This document shows, piece by piece, positions 1-28,284 of a DNA stretch of 28,452 nucleotides. A program made the position numbers and the translations under genes. The DNA comes from a virus (taxonomy: Duplodnaviria > Caudoviricetes): positions 1-28,452 of IMG/VR virus record IMGVR_UViG_3300009442_000027; one strand, given 5' to 3'. The first letter of the stretch is position 1; every line of letters starts with the position of its first letter. The notes beneath the pieces are model-generated. The model saw nothing but the letters and a program-made list of their open reading frames with translations, did no database searches and was not told where the DNA came from.

Positions 1-220
1 AATACGGTTTGGGTATGGTTAGTGCGATTAAATTAAACGAAAATAAATTATGGAACAAACATTTGAAGATTACCTAAAGCAAGCAAGACAAGATTTTGCA
101 AAAGTAGCAAGTGAATATACCGTTACTGAACATTTAAAATTAAGAACGGCTATAGATAGCTTGCTGATTGCCTATGACCAAGCAGTAAACCAAGCATTAA
201 CTATACCCGTTGTTGTAAAA
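1..220 (+). repeat. attC-like inverted-repeat site with a long coding loop
   Basis: GGGTATGGTTAGTGC (11-25) is the reverse complement of GCATTAACTATACCC (194-208) at 13/15, both mismatches G-T type. A GTT-starting box GTTGTAAAA follows at 212-220. The left R box is cut off or degenerate at the window edge. Confidence 0.55.
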
Positions 221-301
221 TCGTTGCCTAATAAATACTGCCCTAAGTGTGGCGAACCGATTGCTAAACCGCATAAGTTTTGGTGTAAAGACAAGCCTTA
301 A
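50..301 (+). CDS. Small phage protein with C-terminal zinc-ribbon-like motif
   Basis: 83 aa ORF with ATG after an A-rich leader; CPKC...HKFWC motif after QALTIPVVVKSL, which is encoded by the repeat arm and GTT box. Confidence 0.7.
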   Translation: MEQTFEDYLKQARQDFAKVASEYTVTEHLKLRTAIDSLLIAYDQAVNQALTIPVVVKSLPNKYCPKCGEPIAKPHKFWCKDKP

Positions 302-303
302 TC

Positions 304-334
304 GGCTATGTTTTACAACCTCGTGTTGGCGGTA
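304..334. repeat. Junction of two inverted core boxes (TTTTACAAC-ctcgt-GTTGGCGGTA)
   Basis: TTTTACAAC (311-319) is the exact reverse complement of 212-220. GTGTTGGCGGTA (323-334) is the exact reverse complement of 1139-1150. Confidence 0.65.
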
Positions 335-1121
335 GTTTTTTTTCCATTTCAATAATCGTACTTATACAAAATAAATTTTCAATACTTTTCAAATTTGGTG
401 ATTTTTCATTTTTATTTAAATACTCAAAAATAGATTTACAATAATAATTTAAATGTTTATCAAATTTAATATCTGAGTGTTTTACAGCTGCACTCAATAT
501 GCTATTTGCCATTAAAATTGAGTTTTTAAGAATATTGTTCCGTTTAAATTCAACTATCTTTTCGTTTTTAACAATTCTTAAAGCATCCCAAAACCCTTCA
601 TCAGCTCTTGGATGAATGTATGAAGACCCTAAATCATATCCTAAACTATAAAGAAACGATAGATTCAATTCTTTTGCGAGATTCTCAATCTTAGGTTCTT
701 CCCATTCTTTTTTTTCTTTTTTTAGTTTTTCATATTTCTCAACTTGCTCTTTTTGGTCAATTAAATATTCTCTAGTTTTTGTGCTATTAAATTCAGAGCT
801 ACTTCTTGTTTTATTTCTAGATTCAAATGTTTTAATAAAAGACCAGTCTTTAAATGCTTGGTAACTATTTTTTTTATTTAAATGTTCAAGATAGAAATAC
901 CGTTCTATTATAAGACGATATAATGCCATAGCTTCGCCTTCTTGATCTTCTTTCAAGAGAATATTTATGCTATTTAACAGTGAGTGTGATTTTGATATAA
1001 AATTCCTTAAAATTATATTTTTCGTGTCAGAATTAGGATCGTCGAATACTATAATAACAATTTTAGTAATCCGCTTATATGATTCAACTAATTTGATTAA
1101 TTCATTATACTCTAGGTTCAT
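306..1121 (-). CDS. DUF5677-like helical protein (cargo, possible defence effector)
   Basis: 271 aa; LYRLIIE and YDLGSSYIH motifs resemble DUF5677; AT-rich and opposite to neighbouring phage ORFs; the C-terminus (LPPT) reads through the core box. Confidence 0.6.
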   Translation of the reverse strand: MNLEYNELIKLVESYKRITKIVIIVFDDPNSDTKNIILRNFISKSHSLLNSINILLKEDQEGEAMALYRLIIERYFYLEHLNKKNSYQAFKDWSFIKTFESRNKTRSSSEFNSTKTREYLIDQKEQVEKYEKLKKEKKEWEEPKIENLAKELNLSFLYSLGYDLGSSYIHPRADEGFWDALRIVKNEKIVEFKRNNILKNSILMANSILSAAVKHSDIKFDKHLNYYCKSIFEYLNKNEKSPNLKSIENLFCISTIIEMEKKLPPTRGCKT

Positions 1122-1139
1122 TCATAGTTTTTTTTAATT

Positions 1140-1194
1140 ACCGCCAACACCAAGTTATGCGAAGCGCAGCTACGTCATAGAAACTGTTAGCGAT
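1140..1194 (-). repeat. attC-like recombination site (about 55 bp imperfect hairpin)
   Basis: Minus strand reads ATCGCTAAC-agtttc-TATG-a-CG-t-AGC-tgc-GCT-t-CG-CATA-acttggt-GTTGGCGGT: AAC...GTT outer boxes, an inner stem with an unpaired base, located between two co-oriented genes. Confidence 0.62.
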
Positions 1195-1235
1195 TATTTT
1201 TTTGTCTTATTCAAAAAGTTGTTCGTGGCTCAAAG

Positions 1236-1982
1236 TTAGGGACTTTTCGGAGCTGGTTTATCTCTAAAATCATCATATATTGTATTGATACCCAGTATTA
1301 TTTCATCTAAACTCTTGCTTTTTTGTAAATTATTAATGATCTTGGAAAGTGGTCGACCTCTACTAATAGTTCCATGGTCTTCTATATATCTATCTAATAT
1401 TTCTGAAGCCTTTCTCATAGTGAGTAAATATGAATCTGCATTTGAACGCAAATAATTTAATTTATTTTCAGATTGATCTAAAGCTTTCTTAAGTTCATTT
1501 TTTTCATATTTGAGCTTCTGGTTTTCCTCATCATAATTATTATTAGATTTACTCAAATTAGCTCTACTTGTGTTAATGGATTCAATTTCTTTTGCCCATT
1601 TGTCTTTGATGTTTTTTAACTCATCCAACAATTTGCCATAATCGGTTGCATCAATTTTGGTTCGCTTGTCTATATGTGTGAATTGATAGTTTTTAAATTG
1701 AACAACAAGCCAAGAAGCAAGTATGTTGAGTGTGCCAAAAAGCACTAAGGCCACTACTGTAAATCCGAGTGGCTTCCATAACAAATTAGTGGACTCTATA
1801 AGTTCAAGTTCTTCAATATAGTCAATTCGAGTGATGCCGTGTAGGTGTTCTTCGTTGATAAACAAGATAGCAACCAATATTTTCCAATTACTAGCAATCC
1901 ATGCCAAAATAAATGTTCCTGTAAATGGTTTTTTTGCTCTTTCGTATAAAGTCGCTTTAACTGATTGATGAAATTTTTCCAT
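1236..1982 (-). CDS. Membrane protein with two N-terminal TM segments and a long coiled coil (cargo)
   Basis: 248 aa; ERAKKPFTGTFILAWIASNWKILVAILF and a second hydrophobic helix, followed by a heptad-rich region. Confidence 0.7.
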   Translation of the reverse strand: MEKFHQSVKATLYERAKKPFTGTFILAWIASNWKILVAILFINEEHLHGITRIDYIEELELIESTNLLWKPLGFTVVALVLFGTLNILASWLVVQFKNYQFTHIDKRTKIDATDYGKLLDELKNIKDKWAKEIESINTSRANLSKSNNNYDEENQKLKYEKNELKKALDQSENKLNYLRSNADSYLLTMRKASEILDRYIEDHGTISRGRPLSKIINNLQKSKSLDEIILGINTIYDDFRDKPAPKSP

Positions 1983-2091
1983 GGTTTTAATGATTTGAGG
2001 GTTATTTTTAAATCCATACCAGCGTTTTGTATAGGATAAGTATAGATTAATTAGCTAAATATACATGTTTTTAATTTCCATTTTATTCTCC

Positions 2092-2850
2092 TTAATTGTC
2101 TTTATAATTTTCATTTATTTTTTTTACAGAAACATTAGTAATTTCGTGACAAGCTTTTAATAGCCGATGCAAAGAATTGGTTAAATAACTTGCGTCAATT
2201 TTCAGGTTTTCACCCAACTTATAATTAGATGCTGAGTTCAATTTTAGGTAAGTTTCATTAACAATTGAATTATTATGAATAATTAAGTTTCTTGCAGAAT
2301 AAATCTCTACTATTTCATTAAAAAAGAGTCCATTTTTTTCATTTACGCTGACATATTTAAAGTTTAAATTAAATTTTTTTTCTAAATATTCAATTCTTTC
2401 CTTGATGCTTTGACGGCCCAATACCTCAACTTCCTTTTTGATTAAATTATTTTTAATATCTTCTATAGAATCAAATGAAAGTAACTCTTCATAAGTTAAA
2501 TTCTTTGTTTTAGTTTTCAAAGATTGCCAGAAAGATTTCAATAACAAGGTAGTGATTTTTGATAAAAACACATCGAAATACGTCACAGCATGAATTAGTG
2601 TCATCTGATAAATTAATAATGGAAGTCCATTAATTCGTCTATTCGTCTGGGCTAATTCAGCCTCTTTTATAATTTGAGCTCTTGTTTTATTACTATGTTT
2701 GTTGATACTTTCAATAAAATTTTGTTTTTTATCTTCATAAACCTTAGTTAATTCTGGTATATTTGACTTGAAGTGCATTAGCTGACTAAGTATATCTATA
2801 AACTCTATTCTAGACTCAATTACTTCTAACTCGTTTTCGTTTAAGAACAT
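2092..2850 (-). CDS. HEPN-domain protein (putative RNase, possible abortive-infection effector)
   Basis: 252 aa, helical, RxxxxH motif RNLIIH in EIYSARNLIIHNNSIVN, with an upstream VTYFDVFL helix typical of HEPN folds. Confidence 0.68.
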   Translation of the reverse strand: MFLNENELEVIESRIEFIDILSQLMHFKSNIPELTKVYEDKKQNFIESINKHSNKTRAQIIKEAELAQTNRRINGLPLLIYQMTLIHAVTYFDVFLSKITTLLLKSFWQSLKTKTKNLTYEELLSFDSIEDIKNNLIKKEVEVLGRQSIKERIEYLEKKFNLNFKYVSVNEKNGLFFNEIVEIYSARNLIIHNNSIVNETYLKLNSASNYKLGENLKIDASYLTNSLHRLLKACHEITNVSVKKINENYKDN

Positions 2851-2940
2851 TTTTTATGATATTTGTTGAGGGAAAACTATTCACCATAAGGTATAGTAAT
2901 TATGCTACTGTTGGAGAGTGGTTTAACTCGGGGTTTAATT

Positions 2941-3129
2941 ATGGAACAATTTAAGAAAATAATTCCAATCTTAGTTATCATTGCTATATACGGAGGCATC
3001 ACAACGATCTACTGCATAGATAACGATATTCCTATAAGATCTGCCTTAGACATAACTGTACCGCTCCTAATTGGGTTTTTCTTGCTGTATTTAGTTAAAA
3101 GTAATTGGAAAGATTTCATGAACAAATAA
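2941..3129 (+). CDS. Small two-TM membrane protein
   Basis: ORF track gives 2902-3129; ATG 2941 (MEQFKK...) is the more plausible start; two hydrophobic helices. Confidence 0.55.
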   Translation: MEQFKKIIPILVIIAIYGGITTIYCIDNDIPIRSALDITVPLLIGFFLLYLVKSNWKDFMNK

Positions 3130-3169
3130 TATCTCATTTTTTTTATATCTTTATCAAAAACTCTGTCTC

Positions 3170-3718
3170 ATGAAAAAAGCCCTACTTATTACCTTATTAT
3201 TTTCCTGTTTTAGTTTGACAGCTCAAACACCCAGTGAAAGCGAAGTTCAAGAAATTATTCAGAAAATAAACAATTTAGACAGCCTCTCAGCGCGTCAATT
3301 TGCTGATGACATTGCCCTTTCATCTAAAACAAATTTTCAGTTTTATGAGCTTAAAACTTATAAAAAAGGCCGCATTCTTAGATACAATTATATTAAGATG
3401 GATCTGCCTGAAGATCAACAACAGAAGATCGAATCCTATGGATGTGATCAAAATTGCTTGACTGTTGAATTTAAAGTGTATTATGAGGGTGGGAATCCTG
3501 ATTTAGAAATTATTGGAGAAAAAAAAATAGCATTTAGCGAAGTTGGAAGCTTCAGATTTTTAGACATATTTCCAACGTGGAAACGGGTATTTTATACAAA
3601 CTCAACTGAAGTTGATGTTTTGAGTTTTAAAAACAACGATATTTATTTAGCAAATACTGGTGTTTTCAGATTTCAAAAATTCAACAACTTTTGGACACTT
3701 AAAAATCAGAGCTTTTAA
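3170..3718 (+). CDS. Exported protein with Sec signal peptide (moron-like)
   Basis: MKKALLITLLFSCFSLTA-Q signal peptide with Gln at +1, typical of Bacteroidota; a -7-like TATCTTTA lies at 3146-3153. Confidence 0.75.
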   Translation: MKKALLITLLFSCFSLTAQTPSESEVQEIIQKINNLDSLSARQFADDIALSSKTNFQFYELKTYKKGRILRYNYIKMDLPEDQQQKIESYGCDQNCLTVEFKVYYEGGNPDLEIIGEKKIAFSEVGSFRFLDIFPTWKRVFYTNSTEVDVLSFKNNDIYLANTGVFRFQKFNNFWTLKNQSF

Positions 3719-3726
3719 CAATTGGA

Positions 3727-3758
3727 TTTGTAAAACCAATCTATTTTTTATAAATTCG
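3727..3758 (+). promoter_or_regulatory. Bacteroidota-type promoter for the 3763 gene
   Basis: -33 TTTG (3727-3730), 20-bp spacer, -7 TAAATTCG (3751-3758; one mismatch to TAnnTTTG), ATG at 3763. Confidence 0.5.
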
Positions 3759-3762
3759 TAAT

Positions 3763-4008
3763 ATGCCAATGAGTCCGAATCAAAAAAAAGGGATCAAAAA
3801 AAACAAGCTGCTACGCTACAAGGACGTTTTGGACTTATATAATGAAAAAAAAACAGAAGATATTCCTGTAATTGTAATTTGGCGCAAACACATTTACCCA
3901 CGTTTTTACATTTCACGAAAAACACTTTATATAATTCTAGCCACGCCCGTGGTTAAAGAACTCAAAGAAATTGCAGCCATTGAAGAACAGCAGCTTCAGA
4001 TGTTTTAA
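3763..4008 (+). CDS. Small basic HTH-like phage protein, candidate late-gene regulator
   Basis: 81 aa; IWRKHIYPRFYISRKTLYIIL resembles an HTH; it is the last rightward gene before the convergent head operon, where Mu-like phages have Mor/C-type activators. Confidence 0.5.
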   Translation: MPMSPNQKKGIKKNKLLRYKDVLDLYNEKKTEDIPVIVIWRKHIYPRFYISRKTLYIILATPVVKELKEIAAIEEQQLQMF

Positions 4009-20785: not shown

Positions 20786-21281
20786 AGCATCTGAATTAAA
20801 AAAACGGTTGCGTGAAGTGGTTGGATTGGATTTAATTTTACCCATAACAGGGACTGTGGTATCAGTAGATACAGATCATTGTAGGGTGAAACTTAAAAGT
20901 GGTTTGATTGTCTCTGATGTGAAGCTTCAAGCGACTATTAGCCGTGGATCTAACTTTTTGAGGTTGATCCCTAAAATTGATAGTACGGTTGTTATGGTGA
21001 GCTTAACGACTGATTTGAATAATTTGACAGTCGTGAAGTTTGATGAAGTAGAAAAAGTAGAATATTCCCAAAATGGTTTGGAAGTATTAATTGACAGCAC
21101 AGATAAGAAGGTTTCAATAAAAAATAATGAAGCTTCATTGGTTGATGTTTTTGAAGATTTAACCACGTTGTTGAAATCGTTTAAAGTTTATACACCTGCT
21201 GGACCTAGTGGGACTGCTTTACCCGATTCAGTAGCTTTGATTAATCAGTTAGAATTGAAGTTTAAAAAGCTATTAAAATAG
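20778..21281 (+). CDS. Baseplate spike/assembly protein (gpV / Mu gp45-like)
   Basis: OB-fold-like N-terminus (GTVVSVD, IPKIDSTVVM) and C-terminal TPAGPSGT; ATG 20778. Confidence 0.65.
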   Translation: MDKASELKKRLREVVGLDLILPITGTVVSVDTDHCRVKLKSGLIVSDVKLQATISRGSNFLRLIPKIDSTVVMVSLTTDLNNLTVVKFDEVEKVEYSQNGLEVLIDSTDKKVSIKNNEASLVDVFEDLTTLLKSFKVYTPAGPSGTALPDSVALINQLELKFKKLLK

Positions 21282-21288
21282 GTTTAAA

Positions 21289-21498
21289 ATGAGTTTAAAT
21301 AAGACAGATTTAAAAAATGACATCATTCAAATCATGAATGACATGATGAAACGTGAAGAAACTTCAATAGAAGAATTTGCGACTCGATTATCAGATTCGA
21401 TTGATACGTATGTGAAAGCTGCTGATATTAATTATACAGGTGGTTTGATAGCTCCAAATGGGGCGGTGTCTGGAACTTTTAACGGCACATTGACATGA
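21289..21498 (+). CDS. Small baseplate-region protein
   Basis: 69 aa; FATRLSDSIDTYVK motif; coupled to the next gene. Confidence 0.6.
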   Translation: MSLNKTDLKNDIIQIMNDMMKREETSIEEFATRLSDSIDTYVKAADINYTGGLIAPNGAVSGTFNGTLT

Positions 21499-24250: not shown

Positions 24251-25024
24251 ATGGCAATAGTAAATTTAAACACTATTAAAAACTGGTTTAAAACTGGTTT
24301 AAAACCAACACAATCACAATTTTGGAGTACTTGGGATTCTTTTTGGCACAAAAATGATTCAATTCCAGCAAATTCAATTGATGGTCTTGACGATTTATTA
24401 GATGAAAAAGCGGATTCGGAAGCTATTGAAAATCACTTAACTGATGAAGATGCACACTCTGATGAGTTTGATAAAAAAGTCGATAAAGTTGAAGGGAAAG
24501 GTTTATCGTCCGCTGATTTTACCCAGAAAGAAAAGACAAAGTTAGCTGAATTAGGTACTGTCTCTATAAAGGATTCTTCATCTACTGAAATATTTAAAGT
24601 AACTGATGAATTGTCTTTTGGTGATGGCTTCGAACTTGATCCTTTAGAGAAAAAAATTAGGTATAGTCCAACTCAAAGTAACTGGCAAACTCTACCATTA
24701 CTAAATGGTGGAACTGGTTATGTTAAATATAAAAGAATCGGCAATAAAATTTTATTAAGAGTTTCTTTAAGCTCCTATAGTGAAAGTGTATCATGGAACC
24801 CTTTTTGTCATTTAGCGAAACTGCCAATAGAGTTTAGACCCGACGAAGAACAACAGAGAACAGTATTTGGTATTACAGGAAGGTATGGTAATGGTGCAAG
24901 TACAAATTTCAGAAACTTAGCTTTGATAATTCAAACAAATGGGGCAGTTTCTGTAACATTTGGAGAAACAAATCAGAATTATAGATTTGATAGTGAATTT
25001 CTAATTAATACAAATGATTTATAG
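24251..25024 (+). CDS. Tail fibre / receptor-binding-type protein
   Basis: 257 aa; NWFKTGLKPTQSQFWSTWDSFWHK N-terminus, KVDKVEGKGLS repeat motif, C-terminal beta domain (YKRIGN, LPIEFRP). Confidence 0.65.
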   Translation: MAIVNLNTIKNWFKTGLKPTQSQFWSTWDSFWHKNDSIPANSIDGLDDLLDEKADSEAIENHLTDEDAHSDEFDKKVDKVEGKGLSSADFTQKEKTKLAELGTVSIKDSSSTEIFKVTDELSFGDGFELDPLEKKIRYSPTQSNWQTLPLLNGGTGYVKYKRIGNKILLRVSLSSYSESVSWNPFCHLAKLPIEFRPDEEQQRTVFGITGRYGNGASTNFRNLALIIQTNGAVSVTFGETNQNYRFDSEFLINTNDL

Positions 25025-27547: not shown

Positions 27548-27579
27548 CAAATATATAGTTATGAATAAATATCACCAAA
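27548..27579 (-). promoter_or_regulatory. Bacteroidota consensus promoter, antisense to the ThyA-like gene
   Basis: -33 TTTG (27579-27576), 20-bp spacer, -7 TATATTTG (27555-27548). Confidence 0.68.
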
Positions 27580-28196
27580 TGCTTAGTGACATTTTAAAAA
27601 ACGGCAAAACCCAAACTAACAAGAAAGGGATTATTAAATATCTTTTAAATAAGAAATTAACGTTGAAAGCAATTGATCTGCTCGAGGTTTTCGAGGGGCA
27701 TCCTATGGCACGTAAGAAGCTCAAAGATGAGCTCAATCTCTTTATGGTGGGAGAACGAATGACAGAGGCGTATCGTGAAGTAGGAATCACTTGGTGGGAT
27801 TATTGTGGTCCTATACTGGTGAACTCTTACCCGACCTATTTTGAGCAATTGCCAACCTTAATAAAGAAAATCAACCTTGAGAAGCGCAGCAGTAAGAATT
27901 ACGTAATGTTCTTGGGAGCGACGAACCAGGAGAGTAACCAGCAGCCGTGCCTGTCGCTCATTCAGTTTCAAATTGAAAAAGGTAAGTTGATCATCAGTGC
28001 CTACCAACGCAGCTCGGATGCTTCGCTTGGCCTCCCAGCAGATATTTATCACTTGTACTTAATCAGTAAACAGATCAAGTTGCCACTCAAAAGCATTACG
28101 TTGTTCTTGGGAAATGTACACTTATATAAGAATAATATCAAGCCCACTAAGGCGTTACTGAAAGGGAGACAGGCTAAATTTAGTTTGAATGTATAA
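27561..28196 (+). CDS. Compact thymidylate-synthase-family protein with dCMP-type Asp (putative dCMP methylase/hydroxymethylase)
   Basis: 211 aa; catalytic PC (QQPCLSLIQF), YQRSSD, GNVHLY. RSSDASLGLPAD aligns to E. coli ThyA RSCDVFLGLPFN with D in place of N177. Confidence 0.8.
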   Translation: MNKYHQMLSDILKNGKTQTNKKGIIKYLLNKKLTLKAIDLLEVFEGHPMARKKLKDELNLFMVGERMTEAYREVGITWWDYCGPILVNSYPTYFEQLPTLIKKINLEKRSSKNYVMFLGATNQESNQQPCLSLIQFQIEKGKLIISAYQRSSDASLGLPADIYHLYLISKQIKLPLKSITLFLGNVHLYKNNIKPTKALLKGRQAKFSLNV

Positions 28197-28230
28197 AGTG
28201 AGGTTATGATCTGTCTAATCCTAAAAGCGA

Positions 28231-28269
28231 TTTAAAGTTGTTTTAAAACCCATTTAAACAGTTTTTAAA
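28231..28269. repeat. Four TTTAAA motifs at exact 11-bp phase
   Basis: TTTAAA starts at 28231, 28242, 28253 and 28264. Confidence 0.8.
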
Positions 28270-28284
28270 TCTCTACAAAAAAAT

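Follow-up and report, generated by a model that had tools for sequence, protein, structure and literature searches.

An integron-like cassette array in Bacteroidota phages whose genes start inside attC-like sites, with probable in-frame exchange of gene halves at the GTT core box

How can a protein-coding gene be built across a recombination hairpin, and what moves when such a site recombines? The question is raised by the left end of the DNA analysed here (the window), an entire contig of 28,452 bases with head, tail and lysis-region genes, whose phage is found in marine metagenomes from several studies. A preliminary description, made from the letters of the window, had proposed that an 83-aa gene spanning an attC-like site exchanges its C-terminal module at a GTT codon, in a dedicated domain-shuffling system rather than ordinary whole-gene capture. 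We conclude that the feature is real, integron-like in its working and outside the IntI family. It is probable (about 70%), judging from sequence comparisons, that whole genes travel as cassettes via AAC boxes and that a true in-frame exchange of N- and C-halves takes place in addition at GTT, probably through the same enzyme.

The array lies at the left contig end and three - strand genes come next, the left part of the phage being absent from the contig. Its features are as follows.

1-3, + strand: left core box, AAT in place of AAC; the likely usual crossover point, possibly weakened
11-25, + strand: left arm of the attC-like hairpin, with GTAT core at 13-16, 9 nt beyond the core box
50-301, + strand: 83-aa gene; loop and right arm encode its N-half (aa 1-54), the body its CxxC tail (aa 55-83)
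194-208, + strand: right arm, encoding ALTIP, with ATAC core at 203-206 and a 5-nt spacer at 207-211
212-214, + strand: GTT core box, the codon of Val55; junction of N-/C-half exchange
212-319, + strand: 108-bp cassette body with complementary ends, holding tail and stop; recurs whole in L057, L060/L062, L063 and L064, and with its 5' end cut in L061
317-327, + strand: collapsed second site, AAC-CTCGT-GTT, with about 113 bp of hairpin gone
325-1148, - strand: host-type cassette body with ends GTTGGCGGTA / TACCGCCAAC, holding a DUF5677 gene (306-1121, -)
1146-1188, + strand: short attC-like hairpin site with an empty loop
1186-2060, - strand: probable third body with a 248-aa gene (1236-1982, -), suggested by its GTTAGCG start; far end degenerate and position uncertain

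The sequence bears out the basic layout as it had been described. The left arm at 11-25 (GGGTATGGTTAGTGC) and the reverse complement of 194-208 are identical at 13 of 15 positions; the other two form G.T pairs on the + strand, whose fold pairs all 15 positions; the - strand fold leaves the arms unpaired. Because the arms pair without gaps, the site has no extrahelical bases. Codon 48 of the gene finishes at 193, 194-220 encode ALTIPVVVK with GTT as codon 55, the tail contains no in-frame ATG, and the body ends at 212-220 (GTTGTAAAA) and 311-319 (TTTTACAAC) are complementary at 9 of 9 positions. The altered left core and the collapsed second site are details that had not been recorded before. 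Shuffling reproduced the 13/15 arm match in 5 of 300 permutations of 1-220 and the 9/9 complementarity in 10 of 300 permutations of 201-330, and the fold of the full 220 nt did not rise above shuffles (z -0.70). Taken singly, the inverted repeats of the window are modestly beyond chance, and the case rests on relatives.

Overlapping contigs extend this picture on both sides. Further units had been expected to the left, and a contig reaching 97 bases further carries there an empty unit (GTTGTATG...CATACAA-TA-C) together with the right arm of another site; in locus L017 the same CATACAA-TA-C ends an empty 42-bp unit upstream of the window's left core. One contig from run X3 has a different sequence left of exactly the first core-box base. 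A contig of that run also follows the window through 1-319, then has 113 additional bases and resumes at 319, giving a second site of about 124 bp, and the commonest site length is 119-127 bp (71 of 189 sites). The collapsed form is spanned in runs X5, X6 and X7, and the 113 bases were not seen in a second set of reads. Both AAC sites flanking the gene are damaged, so that it may no longer be able to move. In the collapsed state of the second site, the tail body (window 199-327) resembles a site loop for the DUF5677 cassette (AAC, 10 nt, GTTG...CAAC, 5 nt, GTT), and the DUF5677 gene itself passes through the collapsed site (window 306-345), its stop at 306-308 lying within the end of the tail body.

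A search with a right-arm pattern containing three degenerate positions returned 51 viral loci and 36 genome matches, seven of which are not sites (L106, L110, L123 and L128 fall within long genes, and L107, L116 and L125 have no nearby left arm); one other arm pattern gave zero matches. The viral loci repeat the layout of the window, with AAC, 5-10 nt, the left arm, a loop with an ATG, the right arm, 5 nt, GTT and a body with mutually complementary ends. Each of the three variable arm positions shows covariation between left and right (Fisher p about 1e-13, 2e-10 and 1e-7 in 54 of 75 right arms, 21 having no left arm by regular expression, with lineages that are not independent), the strongest position showing 30+21 matched pairs and 1 mismatched pair. 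Body ends are complementary at 4.37 of 6 positions in phages (n=105) and 5.32 in hosts (n=80), compared with about 2.1 (2.09) across bodies. The loop ATG is in frame with the GTT codon at 83 of 195 phage-side sites, the other frames at 11 and 8, and at 1 of 88 host sites. Site arrays are unidirectional. At least 10 of 12 arm positions pair without gaps in 165 of 186 sites on the phage side and in 100 of 110 from hosts, with a detector that favours pairing, and under symmetric scoring G.T outnumbers A.C on the phage coding strand by 327:16 among 206 sites on the phage side and by 197:4 among 114 from hosts. The detector called one site in 38.7 kb of shuffled sequence and demands AAC and good pairing, and the window's own site escaped it. 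Entire genes also occur within hairpin loops, followed by empty bodies and with stops in the right arm (L074:3715-4012, L087:3720-4012, L150:5310-5503), and phage-type loop-plus-tail units are seen in bacterial MAG contigs amid opposite-strand genes (L096/L103, L122).

Comparison of proteins and loci indicates that the two halves of the gene have been exchanged at the GTT codon, as the preliminary description had predicted for related phages. The N-half (aa 1-54) has 49 homologues, 44 of which could be parsed, and these carry tails of 41 clusters; a second loop family of 28 members has 23 tail clusters. Reciprocally, the 29-aa tail of the window is found in 14 parsed proteins (two further tail-bearing proteins were unparsed) behind 14 unrelated N-halves, with a maximum identity of 0.26, and always starts at the GTT codon. 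Pairs with N identity of at least 95% have different tails in 32 of 34 cases, a share inflated by the protein database, which merges sequences more than 90% identical and therefore undercounts pairs with the same N-half and the same tail. In 15 of the 44 loop-family proteins the V is absent at the offset junction. At the DNA level, 5 of the 9 metagenome loci other than the window's twin contain the complete 108-bp body (L057, L060, L062, L063 and L064); L061 has it without its first bases, and L058 and L059 have its start only. Four N-termini stand in front of it, the window included, and six different sites behind. The window and L054, which have the same loop, are identical through GTT and diverge at the next base, and the window and L060, which have the same body, differ until two bases before GTT; together these pairs would bracket the joint within T-GTT, albeit from separate events. 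One identical loop peptide at L060:3096 and L061:1008 (reverse strand) precedes different bodies, an 8-residue tail in L060 and, by sequence motifs, a probable DNA cytosine methyltransferase in L061. In cultured phages, the identity between Danklef_1 and Freya_10 stops exactly at GTT, at an array end fixed by the phage backbone, and the same pair also has two junctions at AAC and a shared body that is preceded by different loops. Polaribacter phages P12002L and P12002S have the same loop family with altered yet paired arms and a different tail. A three-part in-frame fusion is present at L058:2519-2860, consisting of a loop N-half, the window's tail minus its stop, and the end of another loop peptide with a further body.

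These breakpoints could also be read as the product of short-homology recombination of the RecT/Red type within the shared right arm, with GTT merely its end and with the recombinase moving whole genes at AAC. Relatives do encode RecT or NinG genes, a right arm of 15-25 bp is common to many loops, one junction between P12002L and P12002S lies in the left arm, and in a contig from run X5 the arms of the window enclose a different loop, followed by the same tail and downstream DNA as in the window, the identity beginning inside the arm. Nevertheless, the tail follows arms that differ to the last codon (PV, QR, SG, DG, TD, FG), the DNA spacers differ up to one base ahead of GTT, left and right arms remain matched where in-arm crossovers would spoil the match, and the end of Danklef/Freya identity falls precisely on GTT. 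We therefore regard a purely homology-driven exchange as unlikely.

The 83-aa fusion protein is the setting for a further doubt, namely whether the hybrids do anything at all. Its match to PHROG 30067 is limited to aa 1-56, and a weak YhfH-like match at aa 57-73 is below the cut-off. AlphaFold gives a confident helical hairpin at 5-51 and low confidence for joint and tail, so that the N/C junction is the end of the confidently predicted part. A fold search against viral structures returned 3 matches, none with E < 0.001, and no family, fold or solved relative found by profile and structure searches accounts for the protein. An RNA-library contig covers 149-319 and possibly reflects DNA carry-over. 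A search for the loop protein in genome contigs gave 70 candidates, none confirmed, and viral scans for the tail or tail end found the window's own relative only. The fusions might accordingly be by-products, an ATG having arisen in the loop and read-through being tolerated, with useless hybrids. The missing relatives are in keeping with this, as are the tails, which are tiny and often unrelated, some bodies adding only 3-8 residues. Against it stand the frame bias given above, 18 invariant residues among 26 aligned N-halves, and the codon changes, with 4 synonymous and 1 replacement codon in the N-half between window and L054, and 5 synonymous and 4 replacement codons in the tail (leaving aside the stretch that the search pattern had fixed); both sides of the joint have synonymous changes in the fused frame. 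We judge useless hybrids improbable as a general account, although the idea can hold together with the exchange of halves at GTT, for which adaptive fusions are unnecessary.

Which enzyme could act on these sites? A tyrosine recombinase had been suggested as something to look for, and none is encoded anywhere in the 28-kb window, nor is there an attI-like motif near its array; a family tied to such arrays does exist in relatives. In hosts, an Xer-like tyrosine recombinase heads the arrays and is co-oriented with them, relatives of it being present in 63 of 121 host-family genomes. The motif ATAACnnGTT follows the recombinase gene directly in 30 of 30 host loci examined, and among these loci no site lies upstream of the recombinase; a cassette site occurs within 1.5 kb downstream in 11 of the 21 loci having at least 1 kb of downstream sequence. 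Sites at recombinase loci share one direction in 13 of 14 cases, and in 7 of 12 cases the first body beyond the attI-like motif has a complementary end closing it. Phage arrays have a similar end, a putative attI, and the recombinase comes right after the array in L074, L022, L087, Leef_1, Freya, Danklef and Ingeline. Its domains are a SAM domain and a catalytic domain, and the nearest solved structures are those of XerA. The array-linked recombinases score 102-208 bits against the integron-integrase profile TIGR02249, whose cut-off is 265, and span profile positions about 180-240 with 8-20 codons, so that some 40 profile residues are absent. Another tyrosine recombinase, within the array of Cellulophaga phage phi19:3, was set aside as a different family (26% identity over 185 aa). 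A Lacinutrix contig (L144:1-11056) carries the recombinase, the attI-like site and 12 cassette sites up to its end, and many host contigs terminate at these cassette-site repeats.

The orientation of the host arrays indicates which crossover is the usual one. In chromosomes of the Flavobacteriaceae hosts Psychroserpens, Lacinutrix and Winogradskyella the same arm recurs in long arrays whose genes lie on the opposite strand. In host arrays, the first body after the attI-like motif is followed by a hairpin and not preceded by one, which means that a body belongs with the hairpin on its left when read on the phage coding strand; host genes on the opposite strand together with the G.T bias on the phage coding strand make AAC, left of the hairpin, the expected usual crossover. 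In integrons, a G.T bias is the bottom-strand signature of the sites, and the folding strand is cut at 5'-AAC, the other strand being cut far more rarely, more so without bulged bases (PMC5027507, in its accessible text). Where two loci share a body, they also have the left loop in common in 15 of 16 pairs (not independent; about 10 versus 1 groups) and the right loop in 2 of 12 (2 versus 6 groups), both right-loop-keeping pairs being collinear sister records. Furthermore, Freya_5, Freya_6 and Freya_9 differ from Freya_10 by units gained or lost at internal junctions that share AAC alone, one of the deleted units being a complete loop-plus-tail gene; Freya_1 and Freya_8 are consistent with AAC junctions, but across record ends. 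Freya isolates of one study differ solely in array content, by up to 4.9 kb, with some bodies multi-gene (L194 1-4100, L198-L201). Freya genome sizes of 44.0-48.9 kb are given in PMC8776804, whose main text contains neither 'integron' nor 'cassette' and whose accessible passages do not remark on the array differences.

Sequence comparison thus suggests that the routine crossover at the left AAC likely moves hairpin and tail, i.e. the whole gene, and that exchange at GTT is likely a second, rarer route and the source of the hybrids. The proposal of in-frame swapping is borne out by relatives, but as a secondary process on top of whole-gene movement; what had been set against whole-gene capture appears to be its companion, the site being reversed relative to the phage gene and whole-gene traffic usual. 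The segment 212-319 is probably not what normally moves, and a circle of it alone, which had been proposed for detection, is predicted by neither crossover. Other kinds of exchange occur too: P12002L and P12002S differ at two AAC junctions and by an indel that resolves in the left-arm TGTAT and does not fit a strict AAC rule, and the window's collapsed site ends at an arm core. A model in which GTT is the main crossover and the tail body (with the next hairpin) the mobile part of a dedicated domain shuffler is very improbable, for the great number of N/C combinations and the complementary body ends that speak for it are offset by the facts that either crossover predicts such ends, that bodies retain the left hairpin and seldom the right, that changes among sibling isolates fall at AAC, and that host integrase and attI-like motif set the opposite orientation.

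We consequently favour a two-route mechanism. The gene would be one unit of an integron-like cassette array in Bacteroidota phages, starting in the loop of an attC-like hairpin and read through it, and its normal movement, as an intact gene, would use the AAC on the left flank of the hairpin. Recombination at the GTT codon would be the second route, joining the front half of one gene in frame to the back half of another, presumably when the same Xer-like recombinase cleaves the opposite strand. The enzyme would cut its sites as folded single strands, and the phage of the window may depend on a copy supplied in trans by the host or by another phage in the same cell. What has been observed directly is the layout, the two kinds of breakpoint in relatives, the orientation reversed with respect to host cassettes, and the recombinase with its attI-like motif beside host and phage arrays. 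A broader proposal, for which we would give somewhat less than even chances, is that Bacteroidota phages and hosts share an integron-like system in which hairpins free of bulges are cut at both ends by an Xer-type recombinase that lacks the IntI insertion; start codon and N-module, placed in the loop by the phages, would make the array a natural combinatorial library of proteins, with selection favouring new N/C fusions.

Compared with integron attC sites and cassettes as treated in the accessible text of PMC5027507, the sites are alike in AAC...GTT boxes, paired arms, unequal spacers and complementary body ends, as well as in one-strand G.T bias, a usual cut at 5'-AAC on that strand and rare use of the other. 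They differ in that the phage genes are encoded by the folding strand and have their start within the loop, the arms are mostly without bulged bases, the associated recombinase is about 40 profile residues short and scores below the cut-off, and the host recombinase is co-oriented with its array. Integron genes lie on the top strand and end before attC; this is true of the host genes and of 306-1121, whereas 50-301 is on the other strand and overlaps its site, and the recombinase is not an IntI with the specific insertion that integrons require.

Shufflons and phage tail-fibre invertases (R64 Rci, Mu Gin) invert a fixed local set between inverted sites beside the enzyme. They are similar in that a recombination site lets one N-terminus be fused in frame with alternative C-termini; here, in contrast, the sites face one way, no recombinase is present in the window, both halves vary, and the tails come from an open pool common to unrelated contigs and phages.

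The closest published description appears to be that of Qi et al. 2023 (PMC9892861), who reported integrase-less attC clusters (CALINs) in phages including Polaribacter phage P12002L; the window has three attC-like sites (by eye and custom detector) and no integrase in 28 kb. P12002L carries a homologue of the window's loop gene with another tail. The accessible text of that paper calls two P12002L sites, in divergent directions, and is silent on genes starting inside sites, in-frame fusion and an Xer-like recombinase. IntI1 with the top strand of P12002L_attC2 gave no recombinants there, which counts against our preferred explanation. By eye, the working P12002L_attC2 and the phage genes lie on opposite strands, and P12002L and P12002S diverge at the AAC that forms the crossover triplet of this site; P12002L_attC1, which failed, is listed on the coding strand. 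This fits the reversed orientation, in a table that does not give the meaning of 'forward'. Nivina et al. 2020 (PMC7439510) engineered synthetic attC sites embedded in proteins and, in the accessible text, proposed them for module shuffling; a recombination hairpin is protein-coding in both cases, and here it is natural, widespread and associated with many realised fusions. In the literature covered, which included few subscription papers, we found no description of natural read-through genes, N/C fusion or the Xer-like enzyme. No integrons were reported in Elizabethkingia (PMC11523902), and standard tools detect almost no integrons in Bacteroidota (PMC9024848), according to the accessible parts of these papers.

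As for the source phage, its terminase is 44% identical to that of Bacteroides phage p00. We take p00 to be a transposable, Mu-like phage, and the final contig bases ACA fit the end of such a phage. A thymidylate synthase-like gene lies close to the phage right end (window 27561-28196), and TTTAAA-rich repeats are dispersed between late genes (21258-21299, 24262-24306, 28223-28279). The three - strand genes beyond the array (window 320-2850) have a low GC of 0.26-0.32, versus 0.36 for the phage backbone. Rfam over 1-4000 gave two chance matches and nothing relevant, and the DUF5677 gene, sought in host-family genomes, was found in 1 of 301, as a fragment without a demonstrated array.

If the two-route mechanism is true, the locus would be a natural instance of attC-in-protein module shuffling, hitherto proposed as engineering, and would offer phages a concrete path to mint small new proteins and a lead on the birth of cassettes. 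Cultured phages with both the enzyme and varying arrays exist (Freya, Danklef, Leef_1 and Ingeline). More generally, the data point to a large integron-like system in Bacteroidota, served by an enzyme without the domain thought to be required for hairpin sites.
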